DNA of 64,000 nucleotides from a virus (IMGVR_UViG_3300047160_007939:32001-96000), one strand, 5' to 3'; numbered from the stretch's first letter, positions 7,936 to 62,526 are shown. Numbers and translations are program-made. The notes: generated by a model not told the origin, from the letters alone.

Positions 7936-8289
7936 CTACTCCTGCCGGATAAACGGTCCCCTGAAGGTCGGCTGCGGATCGGGCCGGCCAGCCGGCTCCG
8001 CCTCCACCGGCTTCGACATCATCCCACCGGGAGCTGCCCTCGGCTGCCAGTTCGGGTCGGGCACGAAGGCCGGCCCTGCCGCTCGCGGCGCAGGAGCGCG
8101 TGGAACCCGGTACTCTCCGCCGAAGGAGCGCGCGTTGACTGCCTGGGGAGTGATCACCCCATCCTTCTCCTGCATCGTGTGGAGAAGCCCGCGCGACCGG
8201 CGCATCTTGTCGCGGTTCCAGCTCCTCTGGTCCACCTTCGATGCGCCGCCTCCGCCGAGCAGCGCCCTCAATCGTTCCTGCGGTGTCAT
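7936..8289 (-). CDS. hypothetical protein (117 aa)
   Basis: ATGA overlap with the portal stop; same operon orientation. Confidence 0.6.
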   Translation of the reverse strand: MTPQERLRALLGGGGASKVDQRSWNRDKMRRSRGLLHTMQEKDGVITPQAVNARSFGGEYRVPRAPAPRAAGPAFVPDPNWQPRAAPGGMMSKPVEAEPAGRPDPQPTFRGPFIRQE

Positions 8290-10334
8290 TCGTCCCTCGG
8301 AGAGATGCGAACCGTGCAGCGGTGCAGGTTGTATCCGGCTGCTACCCCAGCCTCAAAGGACTTTCCGAACGGCTTCTTCGGCTTGCCCGGCTTGCCCGGC
8401 TTGCCGGATCTTCCGGCTGGGCCGGCTGGCCGGCGGGCTTCCTCCTGCTTCTGGCGGAGCAGCGAGGCGTCCTCGGCCATCGGGATCCGCATCACGGAAG
8501 CTTCCCTGTCATCCGCCTGGGCATTCTGCCGCTGGAGCTGCATTTGCTGCTCGTTGTCGGCCATCTGCTGCATCTGCTGCTGCGCGCCCTGCTGGTTCGC
8601 CTGCTGCATCTGGTTGTCCGCGTCACTCTGGCTCTGGGCCATCTGGCCCATCTCACCCTGCGCCTGCTGCGCCGCACCCAGGTTGTGATCGCTCGCCCAT
8701 ATCTGAAGCATCCCCGGATTGCCTGCCGGCGCGTCCGCGTAGTCGCCCAGCTCGCCACCCATGTCGGAGTAGGTCTTCAGCACCGCCTCCTGGCGCGCTT
8801 CCTCGGTGGCAAACCACCGCTTCGTGTACTGCTTCCTGATGGCGTTCCAGAGCACGATGTCCTTCGGATCGTAGACCGGCGGCAGATCCCGCAGCGTCCT
8901 GATCTGGTTCATCGTGTAGCCGTTGGCGAGCCGCTCGGCGTCGAGCTGCTGCTCCAGCAGGTACGCCGGGTCGTAGTTGCTCTCCAGGCCCTGGACCACC
9001 AGCTCGAAGTCAGGATTGATCTTGGTGACGACGTTCTTGGAAAAGAACTGGCAGAGGAAGAGCACCTTCGGGATAAGCCCTTTGTGCTGGCTCTGCATAA
9101 AGGTGCTCTCCGGGTCGGGCATCTGTAGAGCCGAACTCGGCCCTCCGAACCCGGAGAACCCGAACTCCTCGGGAGCAATCTGGAAGACGGCTGCGGTGAG
9201 CGCCACGCAGAACTCGATGTAGGCCCTGAAGACCATATCCATCCGGGCGCGATCCATCATCTGGACCCACTGCGCGCCGGAGACACCCTGGCCGGGAGGC
9301 GTCCGCAGGACGGGGAACTTGTACTCCCCGCCGACCATAAATCCTACATCCTGGGTTAGCAGTTGCTGCAAACCATCGAGCTGGTCTTTCCCGTAGTGCC
9401 CGATGAGGTTCAGGATGCCGAACGGGATGTGGCTGTCGGTGAAGTAGTCCTTATTGTGGCGCACGGCGTAGATGACGCCCAGCACCGCATCGAGGCACTG
9501 CTGCACCTCGCTCTTGCCGTAGCCGAAGGAGGCGAAGTCGGTACGAGGATTGCGGATCCCCATGTCGCCTTCGTCCCACTTGTACTCGCGCACCACGCCC
9601 CAGTACGAGGTGGGATCGAGCATCGCGTAGACGATCTGGCCCGCGAGGTCGGGCCGCATCTTCGGCACGTACTCCTGGCTGTCCACCTTTCGCATCAGCG
9701 CGCCGTCTTCGGCAGCGAAGAACATCACCGGGTTGTCGCGCTTGCCGGCGATAGGGATGGAGCCTTCGATGCTGATGAAGATCCGGTCGATCACCAGCAT
9801 GTCCAGGATGACTTTGCGAAGGCAGGTGTCGAAACTGTCGGCTTTTCTCCGGTCGTGGCTGTCCCACACTGCCGGCTCGCCAGTGATCGGGTTCTCGCGC
9901 AGGATGCCGCCGTGCCGCAGGATCAGCTCGATGCGCTTCGCTTCGTTGGCCGCTGGCTCGGTCAGCTCTTTCTGCCGGTCGCGCTGAACCACCCGCATCC
10001 CGATGGCATTCTCGTGCGCGGGTTCGCGGAAGTGCGCTACAATCTGGTTTACCAGGGTGAAGAGAACCGCCTGGATGACGAGGTTCTTGTCAGCGAGGCG
10101 ACGGAGCAGGCTCGGCTCCAGGTGGGGCGTCTGGTCGTCCAGGATGCCGCTGTGGGTACGGGAGTAGCGGCGGATCTGGTCGTAGCGGCGGTCAGGGACC
10201 CAGCGAGGGCGAAGACCCCCGCCGGCTGCCTTCATCATCTGCTCGGCATAGGCAGCGAGCGCCTCGGTGGGCTGCCCGCCCGTGCCGACCATTCCCTGAT
10301 CGAACAGGCTTCCGCTGACGGCCAGCGGTGGCAT
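8286..10334 (-). CDS. phage portal protein
   Basis: Portal-type segment RNPRTD..GYGKSEV...NKDYF....PFGILNL, later IAPEEFGF and KGLIP motifs; Gln-rich C-terminal tail; 682 aa. Confidence 0.8.
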   Translation of the reverse strand: MPPLAVSGSLFDQGMVGTGGQPTEALAAYAEQMMKAAGGGLRPRWVPDRRYDQIRRYSRTHSGILDDQTPHLEPSLLRRLADKNLVIQAVLFTLVNQIVAHFREPAHENAIGMRVVQRDRQKELTEPAANEAKRIELILRHGGILRENPITGEPAVWDSHDRRKADSFDTCLRKVILDMLVIDRIFISIEGSIPIAGKRDNPVMFFAAEDGALMRKVDSQEYVPKMRPDLAGQIVYAMLDPTSYWGVVREYKWDEGDMGIRNPRTDFASFGYGKSEVQQCLDAVLGVIYAVRHNKDYFTDSHIPFGILNLIGHYGKDQLDGLQQLLTQDVGFMVGGEYKFPVLRTPPGQGVSGAQWVQMMDRARMDMVFRAYIEFCVALTAAVFQIAPEEFGFSGFGGPSSALQMPDPESTFMQSQHKGLIPKVLFLCQFFSKNVVTKINPDFELVVQGLESNYDPAYLLEQQLDAERLANGYTMNQIRTLRDLPPVYDPKDIVLWNAIRKQYTKRWFATEEARQEAVLKTYSDMGGELGDYADAPAGNPGMLQIWASDHNLGAAQQAQGEMGQMAQSQSDADNQMQQANQQGAQQQMQQMADNEQQMQLQRQNAQADDREASVMRIPMAEDASLLRQKQEEARRPAGPAGRSGKPGKPGKPKKPFGKSFEAGVAAGYNLHRCTVRISPRDE

Positions 10335-10365
10335 AGGAGAACCTAACTCCCGAACGATTGATTAA

Positions 10366-10791
10366 CTACTGAACCCGCTCGTAGCGGCCCACGATGTCCA
10401 TTGTCCCGGCAGCCATCGTCATCACGCGAAGCGCGTGCCGGTAACCGGGGTATGCCGCAGTTCGGACGACCTGCCTGCCCCCTACGGTGAGGGTCACGGT
10501 GTCGGCGAGCATCTCCACGGCAGCCCCTGCGGGCACGAGGTTCGTCTGCTGGCCGGCTGGCGGGATCAAGCCGGTGGTAGCGTCCACCATGATCTGGGAG
10601 AGGTCGTCGTTTCGGATGAGGCACAATTGTAGCGTGGCACTTGCGCCTCCGGCGAGGTTCAGCTCCCAGACACAGCTATCGTAGAGCGAGTTGGGCGGCA
10701 GGTAGCGCGCAGGCGAAAGAAGCGCCGGCAGCGCCGCGTCCGCGCCCATCCCCGTTCCCAATCCCCGCCTGGGTCCGACTAGCCTCGCCAT
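10366..10791 (-). CDS. hypothetical protein (141 aa)
   Basis: GGAGG-type RBS; lies between the zinc-ribbon gene and the portal. Confidence 0.6.
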   Translation of the reverse strand: MARLVGPRRGLGTGMGADAALPALLSPARYLPPNSLYDSCVWELNLAGGASATLQLCLIRNDDLSQIMVDATTGLIPPAGQQTNLVPAGAAVEMLADTVTLTVGGRQVVRTAAYPGYRHALRVMTMAAGTMDIVGRYERVQ

Positions 10792-10800
10792 CGCGCCCTC

Positions 10801-19181: not shown

Positions 19182-19185
19182 CCCC

Positions 19186-20168: not shown

Positions 20169-21043
20169 ACCGGCATCCCCAGGTGCTTCGCGTCCGTCGT
20201 GTCGTCCATCGCAAGACCCGGCCACTGCGCCTGCCAGTTCACGATCTTGACGCCCCAGAACCAGTGTCGAAGCTGCGGGGCCACGGGCAGGACCAGGGCT
20301 GCGTGCAGGATGGGACCTTTCTCCAGCGTCTCGTACCAGACTTGAGAGCCTGGGCCGCTGCCGTCGCCCTCGGGCTTCCACGGCATCCGGTGCTCGGGCC
20401 ACCGTCGCATACACCCACGGCAGGTGCAGTCCATTAAGTTGAAGTCCACCTCGCCCGTCTTACACTCGGGGCAGTACCGGGTGACCGGCAGCTCGCGGAG
20501 CACGCACATGCACATCCGGTCGATCCGGTCGGGGTCCAGGTAAAACCCCAGGATGTCAGCGAGCGCCGTACCCGCACGGTCGGGCCGGCCAGCCGGCACG
20601 AGGCAGGGCATCCCGCAGGCGGGGCAGGTGAAGACCTCCACCATCTTACCGTGCTCGCCCTCTTCGGTGTGCTTCGCTTTCTCGGGCAGCTCGGCCCCGC
20701 AGAAGCGGCAGTGGTAGCCGAAGTAGTCGCGGATCTTGTCCTGCGTCTCCTGCTGGGTCACAAACTTATACCAGCCGCGCTCGATGATGTCCGCGCACCG
20801 GTTCGAGAGCACGCCGTCGTGGATCTTGGTCAGCGGTACGATCGCTCCCATCGCCCCCACCGGGGCCTTCTCGCGTTCGGCGTGCGTGCTCTGGGAAAAG
20901 GCGAGGTTCAACGCGCTGACAACACAGCCTCGTACCTGGGACGGCAGGGCTTCCTCGGTCACCACGCCTCTGGCCTGTGTACCGTCCGAGAGTGCCAGGA
21001 GCGCCGCGCCTGCCGCTGTCTTCATCAGTTGCCTGCGGTTCAT
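20165..21043 (-). CDS. Zn-ribbon protein with twin-arginine-like N-terminus
   Basis: MNRRQLMKTAAGAALLAL; four CxxC pairs. Confidence 0.6.
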   Translation of the reverse strand: MNRRQLMKTAAGAALLALSDGTQARGVVTEEALPSQVRGCVVSALNLAFSQSTHAEREKAPVGAMGAIVPLTKIHDGVLSNRCADIIERGWYKFVTQQETQDKIRDYFGYHCRFCGAELPEKAKHTEEGEHGKMVEVFTCPACGMPCLVPAGRPDRAGTALADILGFYLDPDRIDRMCMCVLRELPVTRYCPECKTGEVDFNLMDCTCRGCMRRWPEHRMPWKPEGDGSGPGSQVWYETLEKGPILHAALVLPVAPQLRHWFWGVKIVNWQAQWPGLAMDDTTDAKHLGMPV

Positions 21044-23370: not shown

Positions 23371-23711
23371 CCCACTGTTCTCCCAGGTTGATGAATATAG
23401 CCGGATCGCGGCAAACGTGCTTCATCTCGTCGCTTCGTACCGGCCAGCCGCAATGCGGGCAGTTGGTGATCGTCACGGTCGTCGGCCACCACGTCGGATG
23501 GACGGGAAGCGTAAATCCAGCCGGCGCATTGTCAGCTTGCCCACCCAGGTTCGTCTCCACGCCCGTCTTACCTGACGGCCCCGCATTGCTATCCACACCC
23601 GCACTATTCGTGGCTTCGCCGGCTGGCCGGCTTTCCAGCTCGGCCAGCTCGCGCAGGAGCCTCGGGATCTGCTCACACTGCTCGCACCAGTGTTCGGGGT
23701 CGCCGTGCTAA

Positions 23712-24935: not shown

Positions 24936-24948
24936 CGCTCTATACTCT

Positions 24949-28300: not shown

Positions 28301-28617
28301 CACAGCCACGCCACGTTGACGTGCCTCGGCCTGACGTACCAATCCGAGGCGTGCAGGCCGATGGACTGCTCTAGCGCCCACTCTTGCCGGGGGGTAAGCG
28401 GCGGATCGCCGAGGTACTGCGGGGAGGTGACGAACTCCGGCAAGCTGGGAATGTGCATCCCCACCGGCCACGGCCACTGCCGGAATGCCTTTCTCAGCAT
28501 CTGCCGGCCAGCCGGCAGCGATGCCTCGCGGATGACGCTTGAGAGCGCGCCGCGCCGGATCGCCTCTTCTTTCATCTGCCGGCGCAGGTCTTCGAGCTGC
28601 GCTTCCGAGACGGGCAT
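25354..28617 (-). CDS. terminase large subunit, intein-containing
   Basis: Split Walker A GKG|SGKDT, Walker B VLDEAD, RNase H-like GGDAG...DSFA, FDRWQ and KIDHP...KDLCDA motifs. Confidence 0.9.
27390..27404 (+). promoter_or_regulatory. extended -10 promoter for a leaderless antisense HNH mRNA
   Basis: TGcTATACT 6 nt upstream of ATG 27405. Confidence 0.55.
27405..28106 (+). CDS. HTH-HNH homing endonuclease encoded antisense within the intein
   Basis: Two HTH-like repeats, then HRLVME.HLGR.L...EVVHH.NG.RDDNR.ENL. Confidence 0.88.
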
Positions 28618-28673: not shown

Positions 28674-28778
28674 CTACCTGCCAGCCGGCTGGCCGGCCTG
28701 CTGCATCGCCCAGACGAAGAGGGCAAGCCCCCACGCCCAGACTACGAAGCAGCCCAGCACGACGTAGAACGCCTTCAC
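28674..28778 (-). CDS. small membrane peptide (34 aa)
   Basis: GTGA overlap; hydrophobic VVLGCFVVWAWGLALFVW. Confidence 0.4.
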   Translation of the reverse strand: MKAFYVVLGCFVVWAWGLALFVWAMQQAGQPAGR

Positions 28779-30214
28779 GACGCTCCCACCGGCCCGTTGC
28801 GGTATCCCGCGCTGATGTCAGAGAGCATCGCCCTGATCGTCTCGGTGTCGTCCGCGAACCGCTGGCGCTGTCTTTCGGCTTCGGCTTCCAGCTCTCCGAT
28901 GCGCGCCTTCAGCCGGTCGTTCTCCGCCGCTATCTCTTTGGACGCCTCGTTGACCGCCTCAAGCGCGCCCCAGAGACGCACGCGCGGGTCCATCCCACCG
29001 ATGAGCAGCAGCTCTCCGTGGCCGTTCCCTTCGTCCAACACGACGACGGACGTGTTGGCTTCCTCATCGTCGTGCCACTCCTCGGCTCGCTCTTCCTCCG
29101 GCTCTGTCTCATCCCAACCTGTGTTGGCAGGCGCGAAGACATCGCTCACGTCTACCGCTGCCAGTTCTTCCTCGGTCGGCGGCTCGAACTGGCGCTCGCT
29201 GTCAACGGTTCTCTCGATAGTAGCGGCTTGCTCGTGGATGTCGGTTCTCTCATCGTGGTCGGCTCGCTCGTCGGGGTCGGTTCTCTCCGGTCGGACGGCT
29301 CGCTCTTGCGGCTCGGTTCTCTCCACTGCACCGGCTCGCTCATCTGATACGGTTCCCTCGTCTACGACGGCTCCCAGAGCCTGCTGTGCCAGTTGGGTGG
29401 ACAGGTCAGGGAGCGGGGCAAGCCCACACATCACCAGCGGATCGACGTTGAGTGCCGCCGACACCTGCTTCAACCGCTTCTGGCCGCAGCCGGTGTAGCG
29501 GCCATTCTCCCAACAGTCGAGGCTGGCTTTGTTGATGCCGCTGATGTCGGCCAACCCCCAACGGGTCAGGCCGGCTCGCTCTCGCAGCTCGCGGAGCACG
29601 TCGCCGTCAACGTGCTCCAGGTCCTTCGGGGGTCCACGGTGGGCTGCCGGCTTGCTGGCCGGCTCGGGCAACACGGCGGCTGCGCCGTTCGGCTGGGGAG
29701 GCGCGGCATCCACCTCCTGAAGATACTCCACGTTGGTCTTCAGCACGCTCGCCAGCTTCGCCCACCGGTCGGGCATCGGGGTATACAGCCCCTTCTCCCA
29801 ACAGCGGATGACTTCCGGCGAGACGCTCATCCGGCTCGCCACCTCACGCCGCTCCATCCCGGCATCCTTCCTCGCCTGGATGATCCGGTCAGGGTTCAGC
29901 GGCGGCACAGGCGAAGGGTCTTCCGTCGCACCCGTGCAGTAGTCCACGGACACGTCCAGGAGCTTGGCGACCTTCACCAGCATCCCGGTACGCATACTCC
30001 GCTCGTGCGTCTCCCATCGCTCAACCTGGGTCGCCATCCCGCTACTGTGGCCCAGCCTGCCGGCAAGCTGGGCGCGGGACCATCCCTTCTTCTGCCGGGC
30101 GTTGGTCATCCGCTCCGGCAGCGTTCGCAGTGTCGTCAGCAGCTCGGCGCGCGTGCCCGCCTGGGAAGGCGTGGGCGCGGGCCGGCCTGCGGCCTGGCCT
30201 GCGGCCTGGGTCAT
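28775..30214 (-). CDS. triple XRE-type HTH protein with array-derived linker and coiled-coil tail
   Basis: Three HTH_3 units (ARQKKGWSRAQLA, ARKDAGMERREVA, LRERAGLTRWGLA); AAAGGAG RBS. Confidence 0.85.
   Translation of the reverse strand: MTQAAGQAAGRPAPTPSQAGTRAELLTTLRTLPERMTNARQKKGWSRAQLAGRLGHSSGMATQVERWETHERSMRTGMLVKVAKLLDVSVDYCTGATEDPSPVPPLNPDRIIQARKDAGMERREVASRMSVSPEVIRCWEKGLYTPMPDRWAKLASVLKTNVEYLQEVDAAPPQPNGAAAVLPEPASKPAAHRGPPKDLEHVDGDVLRELRERAGLTRWGLADISGINKASLDCWENGRYTGCGQKRLKQVSAALNVDPLVMCGLAPLPDLSTQLAQQALGAVVDEGTVSDERAGAVERTEPQERAVRPERTDPDERADHDERTDIHEQAATIERTVDSERQFEPPTEEELAAVDVSDVFAPANTGWDETEPEEERAEEWHDDEEANTSVVVLDEGNGHGELLLIGGMDPRVRLWGALEAVNEASKEIAAENDRLKARIGELEAEAERQRQRFADDTETIRAMLSDISAGYRNGPVGAS
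29206..29374 (-). repeat. TIGR-like dual-repeat array 3 (in-frame inside the HTH gene)
   Basis: 10 alternating repeats, all with 9-nt spacers; translated as ER(A/T)xxx repeats. Confidence 0.88.
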
Positions 30215-40295: not shown

Positions 40296-40675
40296 TGCCT
40301 AATCTCCTTTCTGACTGCCGGCTGGCCGGCTATCTTCGTCCACTCGGCCATCCGCTCCGCGCACTGCCGCGCATCGTCATCCTCGATGGCCGTGTAGAAC
40401 GCCTTCGCCCGGTCACCCCACTCGACACCCCAGCCGAGGGTCACCACGGCTGGCACGTCGGAGCAGCAAGAGAAGATGTTCGCCGCTTCGATCACCGCTT
40501 CGGCCTTCACCTGCCCACGCTCCAGCATCCCGCCCAGAAAGATGCCCACGGAGAGCAGGTACGGGGCCAGCGGGGGGATGTCGTTCCAGGGCGGCGGCGG
40601 GCCGTTCGCCCGCAGCCTGTCGAACAGCTCATCCGCCGTTTGTGCCGGAACGCGCCTCTTCGTCAACACCGTCAT
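40292..40675 (-). CDS. hypothetical protein
   Basis: GAAAGGAG RBS. Confidence 0.5.
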   Translation of the reverse strand: MTVLTKRRVPAQTADELFDRLRANGPPPPWNDIPPLAPYLLSVGIFLGGMLERGQVKAEAVIEAANIFSCCSDVPAVVTLGWGVEWGDRAKAFYTAIEDDDARQCAERMAEWTKIAGQPAVRKEIRQ

Positions 40676-41093: not shown

Positions 41094-42323
41094 TCAGGCT
41101 GGGGCGTCACCTTCCAACCCCAGCCCGTCGAGCGCCGCTTTCGCCTCTTCCGGGTCCAGCTCCGGCTTGTACGTCCCGAGCTGCTGCGCCGCCAGCTCCC
41201 CCACCCGCGCCAGCTTGCCCTGGAAGTTGCCGCTCTTCCCTCTTGACGTTCTCACCACCCGATGGGCCGTGCGCTTCACCATCCGCAGCCGCCGGCCCTC
41301 ATCAATCAGGCACTGCGCCTGAAGGTAACGGACGAGGTTCTGGAACCCACCCTCTCCCGTCACCGGACTGCCCAGCAGCTCCCGCTCCGCTTCGTCCAGC
41401 TCAATCTCCACCCAGATGTTGCCGACCCTCGGTCCTATCGGCTCGGGGAAGTGGTAGAAGAACCGGTGGCCGTGCGGATCGATGCAGATGTGCCAGTCCC
41501 GGCTCGCCTGCTCTTCCTCTGCCGGCTGGCCGGCTGTTGCGTCAGCCTCGGTCGGCTGCGGCGCTATCTCCCTGCCTGAAGCCGCTGCGCTCGCTTCGTC
41601 TGCCGCCGCTATCTCGGCATCAAAGTTCTCGTCAATGGCTGCCATCGCATCGAGAGCATCCATCGGTTCGAGGTCTTCGTGGCCGTTCATCGCTGCCTTT
41701 GCCAGCCTCTCCAGGTGGTCGCGCAGGCGCGTGTAGGGCTTGCCCAGGACGCGCTCACAGTGCTCCAGCCCCAGCTCCCTGCCGTACTCCATCGCCTGCC
41801 GGATACACTCCAGGTCGCACCAGACGTTCTCGGGATGCACCGGCAAGCCCCGCTTCTTCGAGAAGCGGCCTTCCAGGTCTTCCCGCGTTGGGTGACCGGC
41901 CAGCAGGGTGTAGCTCACTTCCCCCAGGCGACGAACGTGATGCCTGCGCCCCTCCATCCACTGCGCCGGCATCCCGTTCATCGCCGCGTTCCTGAACCAG
42001 CGGATGAGCGCGTTCTGGCTGTCGCTGAACACGCGCCCGCTCCACCCGTCAGGAAGTCCCCAGAGCGCCCGAGCAATCGCATAGAACTCCACCACGTTGT
42101 TGGAGACGGCAGGCAAGCCAATGGCTTCGGGCGTGAGGATGCCGCTCCGCTCGTGGAAGCGTCTCCCCTCGGCATCCAGGTAGCAGAACGCCCAGGTCCC
42201 GCCGAGGGGAGACGGGTTCACGCCCATCACCCCACCGTCTGCTACCACAGCCACAGGGATCTGCGCTTCGAGCTTCATCCGCTCGGCCATCGCCGCATCT
42301 TCGACTTCGGTTCCGATGCTCAC
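41094..42323 (-). CDS. RNase HI-like protein with C-terminal extension
   Basis: ADGG..NPS..G.W, SNN..E, SDSQ, GH...N...D catalytic pattern. Confidence 0.75.
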   Translation of the reverse strand: MSIGTEVEDAAMAERMKLEAQIPVAVVADGGVMGVNPSPLGGTWAFCYLDAEGRRFHERSGILTPEAIGLPAVSNNVVEFYAIARALWGLPDGWSGRVFSDSQNALIRWFRNAAMNGMPAQWMEGRRHHVRRLGEVSYTLLAGHPTREDLEGRFSKKRGLPVHPENVWCDLECIRQAMEYGRELGLEHCERVLGKPYTRLRDHLERLAKAAMNGHEDLEPMDALDAMAAIDENFDAEIAAADEASAAASGREIAPQPTEADATAGQPAEEEQASRDWHICIDPHGHRFFYHFPEPIGPRVGNIWVEIELDEAERELLGSPVTGEGGFQNLVRYLQAQCLIDEGRRLRMVKRTAHRVVRTSRGKSGNFQGKLARVGELAAQQLGTYKPELDPEEAKAALDGLGLEGDAPA

Positions 42324-44558: not shown

Positions 44559-45356
44559 TTATACCACGGCCATACGCCTCCTGGCAAGCTCTACATAGTC
44601 GAAGTTCAGGTCCCCGCCGAGGTAGCTCCTTCCCATCTCTCTTGCCACGTAGGGCACGGTCCCACTTCCCATCATCGGGTCCAGCACCACGTCTCCCGGC
44701 TCGCTGAACATCTCGATGAGCCTGCCGGCCAGCCGGTCGGGAAACGTAGCTGGGTGACGCATCTTCAGCGGGTTCGCCTCGGTATTGCTCGGCGGGATCT
44801 TCCAGACCGTGCCGCTGCACTTCAGCGCGTTGACACGCTTTCTCTTGATCGGCTTCATCGTCCCCGCCGTCGTCCGCACCGTGCCGCTGAAGTAGCGGCC
44901 AGCGTGCTTGCTCGGCGTGCTCTTGTCCTTCTTGAAGACCCTCGGCGGGCCGCTGTCATTGTTCACGAAGACCAGCACGTACTCGTGGTCGGGCCTGGGG
45001 CAGTCCCGATACCAGGGTCCATCCCGTCCATCACGCTGGTATATCAGCGTGGTGAACAGCCGCCAGCCCTTTGCCAGCCAGCCGGCAGCCAGCCGGAAGC
45101 TGTCGCCGGTCTGCGCGTGGTCGATGCGCTGGTCCTGGATGACGACGCAGGCGATACCGCTGTCCACCGTGGCGAAGCGGAGCAGCCCGCCAAGTTCCAC
45201 CAGCTCCTCCAGGCTGGCATTACAGCCGTCACGGATCGTGCCGTAGTTCGGGGAGAAGACCGTGAGGTGGACCGACCGCTCGGGCAGCCGGCCCACCAGC
45301 TCACGGCAGTCTTCGCAGGACAGCTCGCCGGTGAGAGTTACCACCGGTCCCACCAT
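44559..45356 (-). CDS. beta-class DNA methyltransferase with variant catalytic motif (FSPNY)
   Basis: HEYVLVF, HPATFP, GDVVLDPMMGSGT. Confidence 0.8.
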   Translation of the reverse strand: MVGPVVTLTGELSCEDCRELVGRLPERSVHLTVFSPNYGTIRDGCNASLEELVELGGLLRFATVDSGIACVVIQDQRIDHAQTGDSFRLAAGWLAKGWRLFTTLIYQRDGRDGPWYRDCPRPDHEYVLVFVNNDSGPPRVFKKDKSTPSKHAGRYFSGTVRTTAGTMKPIKRKRVNALKCSGTVWKIPPSNTEANPLKMRHPATFPDRLAGRLIEMFSEPGDVVLDPMMGSGTVPYVAREMGRSYLGGDLNFDYVELARRRMAVV

Positions 45357-46498
45357 CAGGCGACCTTCTTCGCGCTCGCTCCAAGCGCCTCACTGTCCCA
45401 CACGTAGGAACGGTTGCCGAACGGCGTGCCCAGGATCTGGATCGGGTCCTTCAACGTGCGGCCCTGAAGCCCGCGCTGAAGCAGTACCGGGGTTTCCCCC
45501 AGCGGCCCGCCGGCACGCCGGTACTCGCGGTAGTAGCGGTTGAACAGGCCGGCCAGCCGGTAGGCATCCTCAATGTTATCGGACGCCGTGATGCGCCGGA
45601 GCTTTCTCCCGTCGAGGATCAGCTTCGATGCCTTCCGGCGCACGTCATCCTGGCGCAGCGACATCTCGTCGGAACGCAGCACCTCGCCCCAGAAGGCGTG
45701 CGCCGCTTCCTGGCTTCCCTTCCCCGCCAGGGTCGCCAGCATCACTGCGAGGCTGGGTGGCCGCAGCACCGCTTCACGGTAGCTGGCAGGGCCGGCATCC
45801 ACGATCTTGTTCGCGGCCTGGATCGGCTCCTTCCAACGCTCCAGCCAGCGGATGCGCGTGTCGTGGTCGAAGTCGGCCAGCTTCGAGCCGGCTTTGAACT
45901 CCTTCGAGGTGTAGCGAAAGCCGCTGATGAGAAGCGCCGCCGCGCCGATGGCCCGCATCTCCTCGCGGTGGGGCACGCCCAGGTGCTGGTCCATCGCATA
46001 AAGCCGCAGGGTGTCCCCGAAGGTCGCCTCGCGGCCACGGTTGCTCATCGCGTAGACCCAGCGAGCCTGCTCCATCGTGGAGAACTCGCTGTACATCACG
46101 TCGAAGTGGTATGCGAAGCGTCCCGACACCAGCATCGCCATTCGATGCTGCCCGCCGGAAAGCCACGGCTCCGGGTCCCCGACCACCGTGTAGAGGTCGA
46201 TCACACTCTCGCGGAACAGACCCTTCCGCGCTTCCCCGATGTACCGCTGCACCATCGCATCGTTGATCATCCGGTTGCCGGGGATGCGCCGCTCCAGCAG
46301 CTTCTGGGCGCGGCGCGGTGTGAACAGCTCATCTCGCTCCAGCCACTTCCTGACCGGCTGGAAGCTGGGGCGCAACACTTCCGCCTCCTCGTCGGGAGCG
46401 ACCGTCATCTCCAGGTAGCGGTTATCCCGCTCGTATCGGGCCGGCGCTGTCAACGCCTCCGGCATCACCATACCGGCTGGCCCGTTCTCGTTCGCCAT
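45356..46498 (-). CDS. ParB/Srx-like N-terminal domain protein
   Basis: TP..A..LL....NR.....V.RY...G.F...GQHR...M..G..R motif; AAAGGAG RBS. Confidence 0.65.
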   Translation of the reverse strand: MANENGPAGMVMPEALTAPARYERDNRYLEMTVAPDEEAEVLRPSFQPVRKWLERDELFTPRRAQKLLERRIPGNRMINDAMVQRYIGEARKGLFRESVIDLYTVVGDPEPWLSGGQHRMAMLVSGRFAYHFDVMYSEFSTMEQARWVYAMSNRGREATFGDTLRLYAMDQHLGVPHREEMRAIGAAALLISGFRYTSKEFKAGSKLADFDHDTRIRWLERWKEPIQAANKIVDAGPASYREAVLRPPSLAVMLATLAGKGSQEAAHAFWGEVLRSDEMSLRQDDVRRKASKLILDGRKLRRITASDNIEDAYRLAGLFNRYYREYRRAGGPLGETPVLLQRGLQGRTLKDPIQILGTPFGNRSYVWDSEALGASAKKVA

Positions 46499-53479: not shown

Positions 53480-54546
53480 CGTCTGCTCTCCTTTCTCGGG
53501 AAGTCTTCCCGACTGACACGGCCTGCTTTGACCGCCTGCCGCGCTTCATCCATCGTCATCGCACCACCCTGCTCAACCACCATCTCCAGGGTCTTGCCCC
53601 GCTTCCGAGCGTGCCGCGCTTCGGCGTCATCCAGCCAGTAGCGGTACACCCGCTCCGGCTCGCCCCGCTTCACTCCGACAGCCCTCACCCTCGCCATCGC
53701 GTCTTCCAGGTCCTGCTCGAACATCAGCAGCGTTTCAGGGTCGTGCCCTCGCTCGCGCGCCTTCGCGCTCGCGCGTTCCACTGTCTGCACCAGCAGCGTC
53801 AGCGTCAGCCCCTCGCCGGCCAGCCGGCAGAGCATTGCCCTCTCTCGGGCCAGCACCCGGCTCGCCGTGCCGAGGGTCCCTTTCAACGCCCGTACCTCGT
53901 CACCCCACCCATCCGGCAAACCATCCGCTAGGTCGCCAGTGCCGCGACCGAGCGGTGAGTACGTGTGTACCGGGCTTGTACCTTCTTCCGAGGGTGCGCC
54001 CGCTTGCCAAACCTCCCTATCGGGGTTTTCAGGTCGATTGGAACTCTTGCACCCAGCCCCATCCGAAAGGCCGGCGGGCTGGCGTACCTGCCGGCCTTGT
54101 ACTCTAGTGGTACTCTTGTGGGCATGTAAGGGTTGGCACGTTTCGTCCCTCAAGTTGGCACGTTTCGTGCCAACTACAGTAGGCACGTTTCGTGCCAACT
54201 TGGAAGAAAGCACTAGCCTATCAAGCGCGTCTTCGTTTACGCGGAAGAAGAGACGGCACGGTTTGCCCGCTTCCTTCTCCTCCCAGAAGCCGGTAGCCCG
54301 CAGCCTCGCCCTCGCGTTCTCCTGCTGCTTCCGGTCGAGGCGGGTTTCCTCATACCACTCCTCGCGTGTCTTCCAGAACCATCCATCGGGAAGGGTACTG
54401 TGCTCGGTCCAGTAGAGCGCCTGGGACAGCATCAGCGCGGCATTGATCGAGCCGGTGATGTCTACGAGCGCCGGATGGAAGGTGACGGACCTTCCCAGAA
54501 GCTTCAGGACTGACAATTGCTTGCTTCTCGAACTGCTTAACGCCAT
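53476..54546 (-). CDS. phage replication initiator (O-like, N-terminal wHTH)
   Basis: ITGSINAALMLSQ.LYW....GWFWKT.EEW.EE motif; adjacent to dnaB; internal repeats. Confidence 0.75.
   Translation of the reverse strand: MALSSSRSKQLSVLKLLGRSVTFHPALVDITGSINAALMLSQALYWTEHSTLPDGWFWKTREEWYEETRLDRKQQENARARLRATGFWEEKEAGKPCRLFFRVNEDALDRLVLSSKLARNVPTVVGTKRANLRDETCQPLHAHKSTTRVQGRQVRQPAGLSDGAGCKSSNRPENPDREVWQAGAPSEEGTSPVHTYSPLGRGTGDLADGLPDGWGDEVRALKGTLGTASRVLARERAMLCRLAGEGLTLTLLVQTVERASAKARERGHDPETLLMFEQDLEDAMARVRAVGVKRGEPERVYRYWLDDAEARHARKRGKTLEMVVEQGGAMTMDEARQAVKAGRVSREDFPRKESRR
54132..54200. repeat. three iteron-like palindromic repeats (candidate origin)
   Basis: GGCACGTTTCGT(G/C)CC x3; central AGTTGGCACG-TTT-CGTGCCAACT palindrome. 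Confidence 0.7.
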
Positions 54547-55850: not shown

Positions 55851-57770
55851 ATGGAAGAAGAGGTAACCCAGAGCAACTGGCGCGAGCGGCTCGCGCCCTA
55901 CCCCAAGTGGGTGTCGCAGTTCTACGGCCTGACCAACAGCCAGAGCGCCCACATGTTCCTCTTGCACGGCGAGGGGGTGGACGACTACGTGATCGGGACA
56001 ACGGCCCTGCGGCCCTTCCTGGAGAGCTTCCTGCGGCCCAGCGCAAAGGAGCGGGTCGCCCCTGGCGAGAAGAACCATCTACTGGTCTTCTATAACAGGG
56101 CGAGAGGCATCGTCTTCGGCGCGGATCCGAAGAACGCCGATCCGAGGGACACGCAGCGCGAAGCCGCGAGGAAGCTGTTCGAGAAGGTCATTGGCCGGCT
56201 CGAAGCGGCCCAGCAGCTCCAGAGCCTGCTGCCGGGTGGGGCAAGCCGGCAGGCCAGCCAGGAGAACGACCTTCCGGCACTGGAGAGCCAGCCGGCAGCG
56301 GTGATGCCGCTGTTCGACAAGCTCCTCGCGCAGAAGGAAGTCGAGGTGACCCTGGTCATCGAGGCTGCCGAGACGCTCTGCCCGAACGCGGAGTTCGCCG
56401 CGATGACCCCGGAAGACCGCAACATGCTGGTGCTCTTTCGCAGTTGGGGGCAGGACATCGGCATCGGCAACCGTGGGCACAGCATTCTCGTGACCACGGG
56501 CGACGTGTCCAACCTGCATCCGAGCCTGCGCGAAGCCACCAGCGGGGCGCGAAGCCTGGAAGCGCCGCTTCCCGACTTCGACCGGCGGCTGAAGTTCATC
56601 GGCGACCTCGCCGACGCTTACGCGCAGGACGGGGAAGAGGTGCTGGCCGTGGAGCCGGTGGAGTTCGCCGGCATCAGCGCGGGGCTGCCGTACCGGGGCA
56701 TCGAAGACATCGTGCTCCAGGCAGTCTACGAGGAGATGCCGGTGGACCGGGCGATGATCCTGGACCGGAAGCGAGACATGATCGCGCAGTCCTACGGCGA
56801 GGTGATCGAGGTGATGGACCCGGAGAGCGGGTTCGAGGATGTCGGCGGGCTGGACCGGGTGAAGGACTGGTTTCAGCGAAACGTCATCCAGCCGCTTCGC
56901 ACCGGCAACCGGAAGCGCGCGAAGAAGGGCGCAATCCTGGCGGGACCTCCGGGGACCGGCAAGACCAAGCTCTCGATGGCTGTGGCGCGAGAGAGCGGCG
57001 TGACCTGCTGCGTACTCAACCCGGCGCTCATCCTGGGGCACTACGTTGGGGACAGCGAGAGGGCGATGCGCCGCGCGCTGAACCTCATCTGGAGCCTGGG
57101 CCACACCGTGGTCTTCGTGGATGAGTTCGACCAGCTCGGGTTCAACCGGAACTCGGAAGGCGACAGCGGCGTGGGGTCGCGGCTGATGAAGCAGCTCATG
57201 GAAGCGATGGGCAGCGAGAAGGGGCGAGGCAGGGTATTCTGGCTGGCAGCGACCAACCGGCCTGACCTGCTCGACGCTGCGATGATCAGGGATGGCCGCT
57301 TCGATGCGAAGATCCCGATCCTTCCGCCTGTGTTGGAAGAGCGAGAGAGCATCCTGAAGGTAATGGGGGTGCGCTTCTTCGGCGAGCTGCCGGAAGCGGT
57401 GATTAAGAAAGTCGCCGAGCAGACCGAGAGCTGGACCGGCGCGGAGATGGAAGCCTTCTGCCTGAAGGCGTGGGAGCTGCTCGAAGACGAGCGAGCCTCG
57501 GACGTGATGGGCGCGTTCGAGCTGGCCCGCCAGCTCTATCGCCCGACGACCAGGGAGATTGAGCAACAGAGCCGGTACGCGCTTGCCATCTGCAACGACT
57601 ACGACCTGCTTCCCGAAGCGGTGCGGCAGAAGGCCGAGGCAGCGAAGGAGCAGGCCGGCCAGCCGGCTGGCGATGACGAAGACGACGAAGACGATGACTG
57701 GAGCGGCTTTGCCCGGCATAAGGGCAAAGGGCGCAAGTCCATCAAGCCCGAGAAAGGAGAAGAGCAGTGA
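55851..57770 (+). CDS. AAA+ ATPase (Ycf46/CDC48-like)
   Basis: DVGGL, GPPGTGKT, VFVDE, ATNRPD.LD.A..R.GRFD. Confidence 0.9.
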   Translation: MEEEVTQSNWRERLAPYPKWVSQFYGLTNSQSAHMFLLHGEGVDDYVIGTTALRPFLESFLRPSAKERVAPGEKNHLLVFYNRARGIVFGADPKNADPRDTQREAARKLFEKVIGRLEAAQQLQSLLPGGASRQASQENDLPALESQPAAVMPLFDKLLAQKEVEVTLVIEAAETLCPNAEFAAMTPEDRNMLVLFRSWGQDIGIGNRGHSILVTTGDVSNLHPSLREATSGARSLEAPLPDFDRRLKFIGDLADAYAQDGEEVLAVEPVEFAGISAGLPYRGIEDIVLQAVYEEMPVDRAMILDRKRDMIAQSYGEVIEVMDPESGFEDVGGLDRVKDWFQRNVIQPLRTGNRKRAKKGAILAGPPGTGKTKLSMAVARESGVTCCVLNPALILGHYVGDSERAMRRALNLIWSLGHTVVFVDEFDQLGFNRNSEGDSGVGSRLMKQLMEAMGSEKGRGRVFWLAATNRPDLLDAAMIRDGRFDAKIPILPPVLEERESILKVMGVRFFGELPEAVIKKVAEQTESWTGAEMEAFCLKAWELLEDERASDVMGAFELARQLYRPTTREIEQQSRYALAICNDYDLLPEAVRQKAEAAKEQAGQPAGDDEDDEDDDWSGFARHKGKGRKSIKPEKGEEQ

Positions 57771-60751: not shown

Positions 60752-60931
60752 ATGTCTCAAGCACAAGCACAAGCCTACATCCAGAACGGCTACTCGTTCC
60801 CCGCGAGCGAGAGCGACTACGACCAGGACCTCATCGCCCTCATCGCCAGCGAGCGTGGGGGACAGGCGTGGGAAGATGCCCAGGCCAACGATGAGGTCTA
60901 CGACCGGATGACCGGCATCGGATGGAGCTGA
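60752..60931 (+). CDS. hypothetical protein (59 aa)
   Basis: MSQAQAQAYIQ...; TGATG coupling to the next gene. Confidence 0.55.
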   Translation: MSQAQAQAYIQNGYSFPASESDYDQDLIALIASERGGQAWEDAQANDEVYDRMTGIGWS

Positions 60932-61299
60932 TGAACAAGACAAGCAACGAGACACTGGTAGACAAGTTCGAGGCAGGCACGCACCTGCCCGAAGCGAAGG
61001 CCACGAAGCCGGCGACGATCATCGCCAGCAACCTCTTCGGCCTGGATGAGACGACCATCGTCCGTACCCGCAAGCATCCCCAGGAAGGCTTTTCCATCTT
61101 CCTTCAGGTCGCCTCGCGGGAAGGGGGCGTGGTCCAGCTTGTCCTGGGCCGGCAGGTCTGCGATGCCATCTACCGGCAGCGTGACCGCCTGATGGACCGT
61201 TCGACGCCGGCCAGCCGGCAGCGAGCGAGAGCGAGCCGGGAGCGCGCCAGGGTGCGCGCAGCGAAGGCTGCGAAGAAAGCGGCGAAGGCCGCGAGCTGA
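60931..61299 (+). CDS. hypothetical protein with basic C-terminal tail
   Basis: Coupled start; AAKAAKKAAKAAS tail. Confidence 0.6.
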   Translation: MNKTSNETLVDKFEAGTHLPEAKATKPATIIASNLFGLDETTIVRTRKHPQEGFSIFLQVASREGGVVQLVLGRQVCDAIYRQRDRLMDRSTPASRQRARASRERARVRAAKAAKKAAKAAS

Positions 61300-61362
61300 C
61301 ACACAGGCCGGTGGGTGGAGAGCTGCCGCCCACCGACCTGACTTCCCAGAAAGGAGAACTGG

Positions 61363-61551
61363 ATGTCAGTCGAAGAGCTGGAGCGGATGCGAGAGCGCAT
61401 CCTGCCGGTGCTGGAGAGCGCGCAGCGCCTCTGGCGTGACCTGCCGGCGAATGCGCCGGTGGCGTTGGAGATGGAGCTGATTGAGGCAGGCAACAGCCTG
61501 CACCGAGCGATGGACGAGGCAAAGCTCGCCATCAAGAAAGGAGACAGGTGA
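61363..61551 (+). CDS. hypothetical protein (62 aa)
   Basis: GAAAGGAG RBS. Confidence 0.6.
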   Translation: MSVEELERMRERILPVLESAQRLWRDLPANAPVALEMELIEAGNSLHRAMDEAKLAIKKGDR

Positions 61552-62333
61552 CGACTATGGCTGGAATGATTGACGGGATGAGAGCTGACCTTCTGGCGCA
61601 AGACCAGGAGCGGTGTCTCGGGAGTGGCCGACCCTCGCCCGACTGGATCACGAGCGACGAGAGCCGGCCCCGGTACGGTGGAGCGGAGAAGCAGGTGCTG
61701 ACCTCCGACCGTGGCAAGAGCGTGGAGACGAACCTCACCGACGACGAGGCGTTCGAGATACTGGTTGGGATCCGCAGGCCGAGCAACTTCGCCCAGGACC
61801 TGATCGTGGCTTACCGCAAGAAGGGCTGGAGCCACAACCAGCGGGTATGGGGGCACATCATCGCCCTCGGCGAGTTGAACCCCGAGCCGAAGCCTGCCGG
61901 CGAGCAGGTGACGAACGACATCGGCGGGCTGCTGGGTGTCTTCAAGCGTGCCCAGAGCCGCCTCAAGTTCCCGAAGGTGCGGCTTGCCGCAAGTGACGGA
62001 ACGCCGGTGCGCTTTGGCATCGCCGGCCCGAGGAGCAAGCACGTCGGGACCATCGGCATCACGGACGACGGCGAGTACGGGTTCGACCAGAAGTGGTTCG
62101 GTCGCATCCATCTCGACGGCAAGTTCGAGAAGGGCCGGAACCTCACGCCGGCTGTAGAGCAGGTCATCCGCGACTTCGCCAGCGACCCGGCCGGGACAGC
62201 GGCAGCCTACGGCAAGAAGAGCGGCCACTGCTGCTTCTGCAATGCCGAGCTGACCGACGAGCGAAGCCGCTTCGTTGGATACGGCAAGATATGCGCCGGC
62301 AACTGGAAGCTGCCGTGGGGAGAGAAGGAGTGA
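61548..62333 (+). CDS. DUF6011-like protein
   Basis: C-terminal CCFCNAELTDERS..VGYGKICA. Confidence 0.7.
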   Translation: MTTMAGMIDGMRADLLAQDQERCLGSGRPSPDWITSDESRPRYGGAEKQVLTSDRGKSVETNLTDDEAFEILVGIRRPSNFAQDLIVAYRKKGWSHNQRVWGHIIALGELNPEPKPAGEQVTNDIGGLLGVFKRAQSRLKFPKVRLAASDGTPVRFGIAGPRSKHVGTIGITDDGEYGFDQKWFGRIHLDGKFEKGRNLTPAVEQVIRDFASDPAGTAAAYGKKSGHCCFCNAELTDERSRFVGYGKICAGNWKLPWGEKE

Positions 62334-62526
62334 GCCGGCTGGCCGGCCCAAGCCGGCTGCCCTTCGTTTCGTGGCGAGCCGCCGTTCACCGGCGGCAGCC
62401 ACGGAACGGAAAGAAGACCCTCTGCGGCCTGACCATCCCCTCGCCGGTGAAGGTCGGGCCGGTGGGCTACTTCGAGCGGGTTACCCCGTTCCACCACTGC
62501 ATCCACTGCCGGAGAAAGGAGAACCG

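Follow-up and report, generated by a model that had tools for sequence, protein, structure and literature searches.

What is the 14-base near-palindrome GCCGGCTGGCCGGC, scattered through one phage genome, and does it act as a signal? The first-pass annotation of the window (the whole 64,000-nt stretch of DNA that was analysed) had listed 15 exact copies in both orientations. We confirmed all of them, starts included, with seven on the plus strand and eight on the minus strand. The near-matches it had placed at 44724 and 45548 were also real, each being ACCGGCTGGCCGGC with one mismatch. In the whole genome of this uncultured soil phage (119,514 bp) we found 26 exact copies (12 plus and 14 minus), a density of ~217 per Mb or about one copy per 4.6 kb. 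The copies discussed for the window are located as follows.

7983..7996, minus strand: exact copy in gene 7936-8289, PAGR frame, 47 nt from the 3' end of the gene
8421..8434, plus strand: exact copy, antisense in portal gene 8286-10334, RPAG frame, in the C-terminal tail past the portal-profile match
11358..11371, minus strand: exact copy, intergenic, 2 nt past the stop of gene 11374-11721
15077..15090, plus strand: exact copy, antisense in gene 14866-15522, AGQPA frame
15085-15098: one-mismatch copy overlapping the exact copy 15077..15090
20584..20597, minus strand: exact copy in gene 20165-21043, PAGR frame
23618..23631, plus strand: exact intergenic copy, 21 nt upstream of where gene 23345-23596 starts
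28503..28516, minus strand: exact copy, PAGR frame, close to the 5' end of terminase ORF 25354-28617 (long, with an intein)
28684..28697, plus strand: exact copy in the intergenic spacer that separates the three-HTH gene (28775-30214) from the start of the terminase ORF (28617)
31952..31965, plus strand: exact copy, antisense in small-terminase-like gene 31666-32448, AGQPA frame, outside profile-matched residues 9-109
40317..40330, plus strand: exact copy, antisense in gene 40292-40675, AGQPA frame, 25 nt from the 3' end of the gene
41521..41534, plus strand: exact copy, antisense in gene 41094-42323, AGQPA frame
44724..44737, minus strand: one-mismatch copy ACCGGCTGGCCGGC
45548..45561, minus strand: one-mismatch copy ACCGGCTGGCCGGC, within the ParB/Srx-fold gene
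53815..53828, minus strand: exact copy in replication-initiator (O-like) gene 53476-54546, RLAG frame, outside profile-matched residues 12-145
57654..57667, minus strand: exact copy, antisense in AAA ATPase gene 55851-57770, AGQPA frame, C-terminal tail
61206..61219, minus strand: exact copy, antisense in gene 60931-61299, PASR frame
62334..62347, plus strand: exact copy directly past the stop of gene 61557-62333, within the first codons of 62330-62530, RLAG frame

The abundance of GCCGGCTGGCCGGC was beyond every null model tested. Dinucleotide shuffles of the window (n=100) gave a mean of 0.04 copies and a largest count of 2, with 0 of 100 reaching 15; the rough estimate of the first-pass annotation for a random sequence had been far fewer than one copy. 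For the whole genome, Markov models of order 3, 5 and 7 predicted 0.095, 0.68 and 3.7 copies, respectively. Shuffling of synonymous codons (n=200) produced a mean of 7.25 and a maximum of 10 copies compared to the 26 observed; this mean includes ~6 copies outside the original gene calls, which were left unshuffled, while the genic copies alone numbered ~20 compared to ~1.3 expected. Shuffling of the codon order (n=200) gave a mean of 6.03 copies. In the window, 14 one-mismatch copies were present, where the expectation for zero and one mismatch together was 0.24. The ratio of observed to expected numbers was 3.6 overall for exact copies, 2.2 for one mismatch, 1.8 for two and 1.55 for three. 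Shorter pieces of the motif were enriched too: GCCGGCTG occurred 114 times (45 expected), and GCTGGCCG, a piece containing GCTGG, was among the commonest 8-mers of the genome with 103 copies.

We observed that the fixed feature is the sequence, including the central TG/CA, and not a hairpin structure. Both GCCGGC arms were invariant in 26 of 26 exact copies, while GCCGGC-NN-GCCGGC with any other centre was found only nine times, and never with a CG or TA centre. The commonest variant, GCCGGCTGGCTGGC, had 6 copies, and other G(CYGG)3C combinations had at most 6 copies each. Pairs of GCCGGC were found 35 times at the 8-bp register; no other spacing, up to 60, had more than 4 such pairs. The base at -1 was A/T in 20 of the 26 copies and the base at +1 in 16, in a genome of 64.5% GC. 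Moreover, GCCGGC was the sole strongly enriched GC-rich 6-bp palindrome (367 compared to 210 expected), whereas others were nearly purged, CGGCCG to 3 from 130 expected and CCCGGG to 1 from 77; CAGCTG and CTGCAG each occurred once (68 and 50 expected). A target or array element of a TIGR-Tas system was considered and rejected: the array repeats, GAGAGAACCG and GAGCGAGCCG, do not match the motif, and in the 8-nt spacers listed neither the motif nor a half of it was seen, apart from GCCGG in one of them.

With respect to strand, the motif was balanced in a genome of which ~84% is transcribed from one strand. By our own gene calls, 11 of the 26 copies have the same orientation as transcription and 15 the opposite one; the sub-k-mers of the motif were all strand-balanced as well (for GCCGGCTG, 60/54), and the order of orientations along the genome could not be told from a random one (runs test, P = 0.076). 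The spacing of the copies was roughly random, compatible with uniform placement. The closest two were 181 bp apart, and there were no close inverted pairs.

The copies were also independent of reading frame: the 21 of 26 that lie inside genes occupy five of the six frames (AGQPA nine times, PAGR five, RLAG four, PASR two and RPAG one). The first-pass annotation had named AGQPA and PAGR correctly; its third frame, AGWPA, was not found. Five copies were not fully inside a gene, compared to ~7% of non-coding DNA (P about 0.07), which gives slight backing to the remark that copies often lie near gene ends; four copies lie within 0-8 nt of a stop codon. The 7.8-kb fibre gene was empty of copies, as had been pointed out, but this emptiness was not significant (P = 0.18). 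In all six motif-bearing proteins that had a profile match, the copy was outside the matched region; the rough product of the uncovered fractions for these six proteins is ~0.03.

Among the genomes searched, the motif is specific to this phage and rare in bacteria and in other phages. The highest density among 635 GC-rich bacterial genomes was 7.9 per Mb, compared to 217 in the phage; the set (301 Actinomycetota, 121 Acidobacteriota, 151 Pseudomonadota, 61 Myxococcota and one Planctomycetota) amounts to ~0.3% of ~200,000 species genomes, and the host of the phage may fall outside it. Motif matches in genome contigs, among those listed (80 of 120 sampled), were single matches in different genomes. 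We found no copies in 80 polA-related viral loci (distantly related phage contigs), and four other viral records had no more than 3. The DNA polymerase of the best relative was 36% identical, and that of cultured phages at most 25%. Soil strains of the phage itself differ at only ~60 sites in 20 kb, so that a comparison of site conservation among them has no power. The suggestion of a genome-wide signal at the level of DNA, and not a protein or codon effect, is supported: it survived the two refutations that the first-pass annotation had named, by Markov models or a codon-preserving shuffle and by comparison with unrelated GC-rich genomes.

The motif is a discrete exact site, independent of frame and strand and far above every null model. 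We consider it quite possible, if short of probable, that the 14-mer is a selected recognition site in duplex DNA for a putative sequence-specific protein acting genome-wide; that a protein reads the motif, and what its binding would bring about, is what we infer from the following observations. The few variant centres, combinations and registers argue for a discrete motif, and the excess of exact genic copies (~20 to ~1.3) next to mismatch neighbours enriched only 2.2 and 1.8 times argues for sharp specificity. The strand balance under largely one-strand transcription points to recognition of the duplex. The A/T preference in the flanks, the conservation of the sequence where any other stem occurs at most once, the enrichment of GCCGGC among purged palindromes, the position of copies in tolerant protein regions outside profile matches and the restriction of the motif to this phage among the genomes searched are consistent with the same reading, for which the dispersed repeats of phage Corndog give a precedent and the ParB/Noc/KorB-type fold encoded in the window a possible agent. 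The reader would most simply be a dimer or a tandem-domain protein contacting each GCCGGC half-site, with the central TG/CA step either read or required for the DNA shape. Such a site would operate on the scale of the whole chromosome, at its spacing of several kilobases, and not at individual promoters; copies would have accumulated where the coding sequence tolerates them, in Ala/Gly/Pro/Gln-rich tails, linkers, gene junctions and spacers. Against a recognition site, the enrichment of short pieces is equally expected from mutational drive or from decay of old sites, and regulatory operators are mostly located in promoters, whereas most copies here are inside genes.

Two proteins encoded in the window are candidates for the reader.

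45356..46498, minus strand: candidate reader, protein with a ParB/Srx-fold N-domain
28775..30214, minus strand: candidate reader, ORF with three XRE-type HTH domains

The gene of the first is immediately upstream of an N6/N4 DNA methyltransferase gene (44559-45356). The protein had no match in Pfam, PHROG, NCBIfam or PDB sequences. Its AlphaFold model has an N-domain of the ParB/Noc/KorB/sulfiredoxin type: the top 23 rows of structure matches were all of the ParB/Srx superfamily, the alignment of the N-domain to Noc 7ng0 reached a VIA Z of up to 8.2 (rmsd 2.8 A, 94 residues), and the best Foldseek E was 4.2e-3. The earlier label of this gene as ParB-like thus holds at the level of fold, because of this predicted N-domain and a conserved GQHR motif, and does not extend to a sequence-family match. 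Loading of this protein at the 14-mer, by analogy with KorB at its operators in plasmid RK2 or Noc at its sites in the Bacillus chromosome, is the sub-model we prefer, although in our estimate it is unlikely; if it did take place, the phage genome would be marked or organised by it. What counts against such loading is that the model contains no recognisable ParB HTH domain, residues 175-325 having no clear match (Spo0J with a Z of only 3.2). Profile scans of the phage showed no ParA partner. ParB/Srx domains located beside methyltransferases are frequently nuclease or modification modules. As for the second candidate, two motif copies lie directly downstream of its ORF.

Other explanations of the copies have to be weighed against a recognition site. 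A motif hyper-abundant in the host, be it uptake-sequence-like, HIP1-like or repair-related, could be mirrored by a phage that shares the host's drive or imitates the look of host DNA; this we regard as unlikely. Uptake sequences (DUS of Neisseriaceae, USS of Pasteurellaceae) are strand-symmetric, fall in several frames at tolerant coding positions and show a gradient of partial, degenerate copies. The same traits are found here and, according to Xu, Lawrence & Durand 2018 (PMC5861425), in HIP1. With 635 of ~200,000 species genomes surveyed, a family-restricted motif would easily be missed. Still, no sampled genome came near the density of the phage, the listed contig matches were single per genome, and the close inverted pairs typical of uptake-sequence terminators were absent.

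Neutral molecular drive is in our view distinctly unlikely. Here biased repair or gene conversion, tied to a phage DNA methyltransferase or to a host system of the very-short-patch type, would make the motif from near-cognate sequence and leave functionless sites. In favour of it, the window has genes for four DNA methyltransferases and partial motifs show a graded enrichment; the duplex contains a single A:T pair, at its centre, and many cytosines in CCGG/GGCC that are possible methylation targets. Against this, enrichment jumps steeply between one-mismatch and exact copies, the motif shows no shortage of C-to-T variants (GCCGGCTGGCTGGC is the commonest variant), and scans with Pfam and PHROG showed no Vsr-like gene. 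A comparable model for HIP1 was rejected in favour of selection (PMC5861425).

The copies might also be sites at which a phage endonuclease or nickase cleaves the DNA or leaves localized interruptions in one strand, as is known from T5, phiKMV-like phages and Pseudomonas phage tf; this seems quite improbable. The genome size and the nearest cultured DNA polymerases (24-25% identity) hint at a remote tie to T5-like phages of 110-120 kb, HNH and endonuclease VII-like proteins are encoded by the phage, and an asymmetric centre present in both orientations would nick both strands, but to our knowledge none of the known nick motifs resembles GCCGGCTGGCCGGC.

A structure-only hairpin in RNA or single-stranded DNA, with a GCCGG stem and a CTGG/CCAG loop serving as a stability element, terminator part or priming signal, is disfavoured and very improbable. 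The 14-mer is predicted to fold on either strand into a 5-bp stem with a 4-nt loop (DNA -4.6, RNA -7.9 kcal/mol), and four copies adjoin stop codons. However, the z-scores of the folds reach only about -2, the copies are not followed by a T-run, orientation shows no preference relative to transcription, and there is no covariation: the GCCGG stem with these loops occurs 26 times, any other stem with the same loops at most once.

A Chi-like recombination motif had been among the annotation's suggestions. A polar signal of this kind, or one for a translocase such as KOPS, would be recognised by a helicase-nuclease of host or phage on one strand only. In its favour, GCTGG, which is shared with the E. 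coli Chi sequence, recurs in the commonest 8-mers of the genome, and Chi enrichment is documented in phages, but the complete strand symmetry makes this signal disfavoured and highly unlikely, as do the lack of positional polarity for the 14-mer or any sub-k-mer, an order of orientations that resembles a random one and a length of 14 nt, far beyond known Chi sites.

Compared with known systems, a recognition site of this kind has partial counterparts. KorB operators (RK2), Noc-binding sites and parS are palindromes or near-palindromes of 13-16 bp, found across a replicon at roughly a dozen to tens of sites, many of them in genes. Here, too, a near-palindrome is dispersed over the genome, and the phage encodes a candidate protein with a predicted ParB/Srx-fold N-domain; in contrast to these ParB-family networks, the candidate has no recognised ParB-type HTH and no ParA partner was seen. 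We know of no sequence likeness between GCCGGCTGGCCGGC and parS, OB or NBS. The stoperators of Cluster A mycobacteriophages (L5 gp71) are 13-bp repressor sites with some 20-30 copies genome-wide, including transcribed regions. They are asymmetric and oriented with transcription, and the orientation counts given above (11 same, 15 opposite) disfavour a stoperator reading. Uptake sequences are a property of host chromosomes at about 1 per kb; our survey of 635 genomes turned up no such host, and the phage showed no inverted terminator pairs.

The HIP1 sequence of cyanobacteria, GCGATCGC, is 15- to 300-fold over-represented, and selection on it was demonstrated through conservation between genomes (PMC5861425). 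As described there, HIP1 is short, GC-rich, present in both ORFs and spacers and without a peptide or RNA role, and GCCGGCTGGCCGGC shares with it a many-fold excess over composition- and codon-aware expectation. HIP1, however, is a perfect 8-bp palindrome of host chromosomes distributed phylum-wide, whereas the present motif is a 14-bp near-palindrome of one phage genome, its central TG/CA not being self-complementary.

Cluster O mycobacteriophages carry a 17-bp dyad-symmetric repeat, 5'-TGTTCGGNNNCCGAACA, which according to Cresawn et al. 2015 (PMC4351075) is common to five related phages; the phage described here has no known relatives. The sequences are unrelated, and the Cluster O centre (NNN) is variable, while the TG/CA centre is fixed. 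In Corndog, as given in that source, the repeat has 34 copies genome-wide and its function is unknown; 14 of the 34 lie between ORFs and 10 near ORF ends, compared to the 21 of 26 inside genes in five frames here. Both genomes nevertheless have in common a short motif with invariant inverted arms in tens of scattered copies, between ORFs as well as inside them.

All 15 exact copies of the 14-base near-palindrome (two GCCGGC palindromes separated by TG or CA) that the first-pass annotation had located in the window were found at their coordinates, and the two near-matches it had claimed proved to be genuine one-mismatch copies; the window holds 14 copies of that kind. Dinucleotide shuffles of the window produced a mean of 0.04 exact copies and 2 at most, compared to the 15 observed. 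Over the whole record the exact copies number 26, split 12 to 14 between the strands, which makes the motif by far the commonest 14-mer of the phage genome; the commonest 8-mer is GCCGGCTG, with 114 copies. In the dispersed 14-mer test the motif ranked first in 9 of 10 20-kb tiles of the phage, with 4-6 copies each. For models that take coding into account, genes were predicted by a simple self-trained codon-score script rather than by a standard gene finder (146 genes, 92.8% coding).

Copies of the motif in the whole genome under five models (26 observed)
Markov order 3: 0.095 expected
Markov order 5: 0.68 expected
Markov order 7: 3.7 expected
Synonymous-codon shuffle, 200 runs: mean 7.25, maximum 10
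Codon-order shuffle, 200 runs: 6.03 expected

About 6 of the copies in each codon-shuffle mean lie outside genes and were left unshuffled throughout. Therefore, the genic expectation was about 1.3 for the synonymous shuffle and about 0.03 for the codon-order shuffle, compared to about 20 observed. The counts remain unexplained by the Markov and codon-shuffled models in which the first-pass annotation had seen a possible refutation. As a feature of this genome the motif is real, and its statistical support is very strong.

The placement of the copies was determined with our own gene calls, the long terminase ORF being restored. We found that 21 of the 26 copies are genic and use five of the six frames (encoding AGQPA nine times, PAGR five, RLAG four, PASR twice and RPAG once), and that five are intergenic or at a stop codon. 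With respect to transcription, 11 copies have the same orientation and 15 the opposite one. Regular spacing was rejected, with the copies fitting uniform random placement (CV 0.77, P = 0.12), and alternating orientation was not significant (18 runs compared to 13.95 expected, P = 0.076). The lack of copies in the fibre gene is unremarkable (P = 0.18). Six motif-bearing proteins have a profile match (the portal, the small terminase, an O-like initiator, an AAA ATPase, a 2,270-aa helicase protein and a 684-aa protein), and in none of them does the copy fall within the matched part, an outcome with a roughly estimated probability of about 0.03.

The sequence itself is narrowly defined. GCCGGC-NN-GCCGGC occurs 35 times, 26 times with the TG or CA center and never with CG or TA, while no other spacing between GCCGGC pairs, up to 60 bp, was seen more than 4 times. 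The flanking base is A or T before the motif in 20 of 26 cases and after it in 16. Neighbors with one and two mismatches are enriched 2.2 and 1.8 times over expectation, respectively, and the exact copies far more. A microsatellite-like (CYGG)n class was ruled out, as other (CYGG)3 combinations have at most 6 copies; one member of the class, GCCGGCCGGCCGGC, has none in the genome.

We also observed that several other palindromes are depleted.

Palindromes in the whole genome, window included (expectations from synonymous shuffles)
CAGCTG: 1 observed, 68 expected
CCCGGG: 1 observed, 77 expected
CGGCCG: 3 observed, 130 expected
TCCGGA: 1 observed, 42 expected
CTGCAG: 1 observed, 50 expected
CGATCG: 10 observed, 59 expected
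ACGCGT: 3 observed, 24 expected
CATG: 70 observed, 330 expected
GCCGGC: 367 observed, 210 expected

GCCGGC was the only strongly enriched 6-bp palindrome. The near-absence of several GC-rich palindromes looks like heavy restriction avoidance, a signature that might help to narrow down the host. A 14-mer made of two palindromes has been retained against this genome-wide loss, and since GC-rich palindromes have otherwise been removed from the genome, the retention looks deliberate. Avoidance does not create the motif as a by-product, because Markov models of order 5-7, with hexamer and octamer biases included, still expect only 0.68-3.7 copies.

The window spans bases 32001-96000 of a phage record that has 119,514 bp and 64.5% G+C. 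The 97 initial bases of the record are repeated at its end, pointing to either a circular assembly or a terminal repeat. Among the genes in the window are those for a portal, a 2,599-aa tail fibre, the small terminase, an intein-bearing large terminase, a primase, a DnaB helicase and a family-A DNA polymerase, along with five tRNAs and four DNA methyltransferases.

25354-28617, minus strand: 1,087-aa terminase ORF, weak terminase-large-subunit match
17852-18953, minus strand: five-tRNA cluster (Lys-TTT, Asp-GTC, Ile-GAT, one with an odd anticodon loop, Trp-CCA)

The terminase ORF is also matched by an intein splicing domain, at a Pfam E-value (1.5e-5) that falls short of the curated cut-off. 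Beyond the window, two giant ORFs of 2,270 and 1,843 aa (loci L113/L114) occupy positions 13770-26110 of the record, the former being of the "large polyvalent protein" type with an LPD1 domain and a SNF2/DEAD helicase region, and a sigma-70 region-2 protein is encoded at 106647-107468.

Megablast of 8 kb of the phage against cultured phages gave no match, and tblastn of its DNA polymerase against them gave identities of 25% or less; the closest polymerase in a collection of 5.8 billion proteins was 36% identical. A scan of viral contigs with a single protein found no relatives, and an alignment-based scan yielded 80 loci; the top one was 42% identical and lay on a 5-kb contig. For a 10-kb stretch of the phage, 0.77-0.99 of the sampled words were present in 24 soil-metagenome runs among the matches listed (23 coded studies, mostly from 2019 and possibly one campaign). 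With no close cultured phage and with a presence in many soil runs, the source is an uncultured soil phage, recurrent across soils, and because of this recurrence the virus that carries the signal is ecologically common. No RNA datasets were among the matches listed for the phage DNA, and the endolysin-like protein, which fell only into viral hypothetical clusters of a protein atlas, gives no clue to the host. Soil contigs from 4 runs, compared over 8698-28697, had about 60 differences; none of the 40 listed fell inside the six motif copies, where about 0.25 would be expected, so that this comparison has no power.

In the other sequences searched the motif was rare.

Motif in bacterial genomes
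Five GC-rich genomes (one each of Actinomycetota, Pseudomonadota, Acidobacteriota, Planctomycetota and Myxococcota): matched in 5 of 5, 1.3-4 per Mb
Actinomycetota: matched in 125 of 301, highest 33 in 4.4 Mb
Acidobacteriota: matched in 58 of 121, highest 17 in 5.2 Mb
Pseudomonadota: matched in 43 of 151, highest 9 in 7.1 Mb
Myxococcota: matched in 24 of 61, highest 53 in 6.7 Mb (7.9 per Mb)

Four of the initial five genomes recur in the phylum samples, which gives 635 distinct genomes in total; seven of these, flagged as unpublished, had 0-4 copies each, and no conclusion rests on them. The density was 217 per Mb in the phage compared to a maximum of 7.9 per Mb among the 635 genomes. Equal frequency in unrelated GC-rich genomes, which the first-pass annotation had named as evidence against a special role, is thus not what we found; the motif is far rarer in those searched. 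The Myxococcota genome with 53 copies (G636) was an outlier, compared to 14 copies for the reversed control, and is 27-fold sparser than the phage.

None of the 80 polymerase-related viral loci, 15 of them with at least 58% G+C, carried the motif. In the 65 loci that were 10 kb or longer, the most frequent dispersed 14-mer had two copies in 60 loci, one in 2, three in 1 and four in 2. A control viral contig (L133; 16.8 kb, 46% G+C) has a dispersed 14-mer of its own, TGCAAGCGATTGCA, with 4 copies at least 100 bp apart, 5-bp arms and a 4-nt center, possibly another genome-wide hairpin or dyad motif. Motif scans of viral contigs and of cellular genome contigs gave scattered single copies among the matches listed; the sole viral contig with three copies among them has all three on the same strand in a stretch of 420 bp, suggestive of a local repeat.

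The exact and discrete sequence, strand symmetry, independence of frame and transcription, tolerant placement, flank preference and rarity in the other sequences searched suggest that the motif is quite possibly a duplex-DNA recognition site, shaped chromosome-wide by selection or drive and bound by a putative reader protein. A less likely alternative is origin from a host in which the motif is hyper-abundant, given that the survey represents only about 0.3% of species.

The window also contains genes for DNA modification and for an RNA-guided nuclease.

33373-34116, minus strand: DNA methyltransferase
35536-36306, minus strand: DNA methyltransferase
44559-45353, minus strand: DNA methyltransferase
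46626-47303, minus strand: DNA methyltransferase
34168-35331, minus strand: tasR-like gene, 387 aa (NCBIfam NF052498.1 "TIGR-Tas system RNA-guided endonuclease", E 3.5e-46, 157.9 bits, cut-off 100)
about 12729-12810, read on the minus strand: TIGR mini-array
about 24950-25341, likewise
about 29206-29359, likewise
about 32455-32646, likewise
about 34046-34164, likewise
about 35404-35541, likewise
about 36390-36471, likewise
about 36517-36653, likewise

One methyltransferase had a PHROG match only, two are of the beta-class N6/N4 type and one is a Dam-like phage N6A enzyme. Methylation-linked neutral drive would be an unlikely origin of the motif, and a role as a nick or cleavage site is a shade less likely again. 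Two of the four methyltransferase genes flank the tasR gene, whose product also has a weak IS110 RuvC match. Its transposase-like label was replaced on the basis of the NCBIfam match; judged by sequence, the product is TasR-like and the phage carries a TIGR-Tas system, of the kind described in the available text of PMC12045711. The host search found no relatives of this gene in cellular genome contigs. In the mini-arrays, of which there are at least eight, the 10-nt repeats GAGAGAACCG and GAGCGAGCCG alternate with 8-nt spacers at a period of 36. No repeat or spacer matches the motif, and a link between the two was rejected. The array at 12729-12810 lies inside a primase-like gene (12042-13097) and that at 29206-29359 inside the C-terminal part of a three-HTH ORF (28775-30214); either arrays are embedded in coding sequence or the two ORFs are over-extended in GC-rich DNA.

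For a recognition site, two candidate readers are encoded nearby. The gene at 45356-46495, called ParB-like in the first-pass annotation, found no counterpart in Pfam, PHROG, NCBIfam or the PDB sequences, and the resemblance holds at the level of a ParB/Noc-type fold in the model. Its product has 202 remote homologs with a GQHR motif in common. In the AlphaFold model (51 sequences, mean pLDDT 82.3), residues 48-156 resemble Noc, ParB, KorB, PadC and sulfiredoxin, with a best Foldseek E-value of 4.2e-3, an rmsd of about 3 Å over about 95 residues and a VIA Z of 6-8.2, where values near 8 are borderline by the tool's note but every one of the top 23 rows is from a single superfamily. For the rest of the model, which is helical, there was no clear match. 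The gene is directly upstream of an N6/N4 methyltransferase gene. The other candidate, the ORF at 28775-30214, has three XRE-type HTH domains, and two motif copies are positioned just downstream of it. The small terminase-like protein (31666-32445) and an HTH_17 protein (59696-60142) may also be considered as readers.

ParB/KorB/Noc-style loading at the motif is the most attractive sub-model, though unproven. It is improbable, yet conceivable, that the phage encodes a chromosome-marking system, in which the ParB/Srx-fold protein, possibly with the adjacent methyltransferase, would load at about 26 near-palindromic sites and spread or bridge to organize, silence or label the genome as "self" in the course of infection. 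This would amount to a KorB/Noc-like network on a virulent-type soil phage, one that uses a TIGR-TasR RNA-guided nuclease against other DNA and has rid itself of almost every other GC-rich palindrome.

Two further explanations were contradicted directly. The motif can form a hairpin with a stem of 5 bp and a loop of 4 nt (-4.6 kcal/mol as DNA, -7.9 as RNA); however, other stems with those loops occur at most once each, so the sequence is kept rather than the structure, and a hairpin function is very unlikely. A polar Chi-like signal is just as hard to credit, since the 14-mer and all its sub-words are balanced between strands in a genome with about 84% transcribed from one strand.

Few features of phage genomes are as poorly understood as short DNA signals that recur genome-wide; for years neither the Cluster O repeat nor HIP1 has been assigned a function. 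The present case is unusually clean, with one exact 14-mer in 26 copies, no confounding relatives and few candidate readers encoded nearby. If a protein that reads the motif were found, it would provide a testable model of chromosome organization or marking in large phages. A text search of a literature collection found the exact 14-mer or its complement only in three unrelated papers, and a word search for dispersed over-represented phage palindromes returned HIP1 and no phage case.

The motif is a genome-wide dispersed phage motif, a kind already known, here in a new form. In the closest described case, according to the available text of PMC4351075, Cluster O mycobacteriophages carry a 17-bp dyad repeat, which has 34 copies in Corndog, between and within ORFs, with its function given as unknown. 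The closest chromosomal analogue is HIP1 of cyanobacteria (available text of PMC5861425). Compared to both, as far as those texts describe them, the phage motif has another sequence and a fixed asymmetric center, is mostly intragenic and is confined to one orphan phage.
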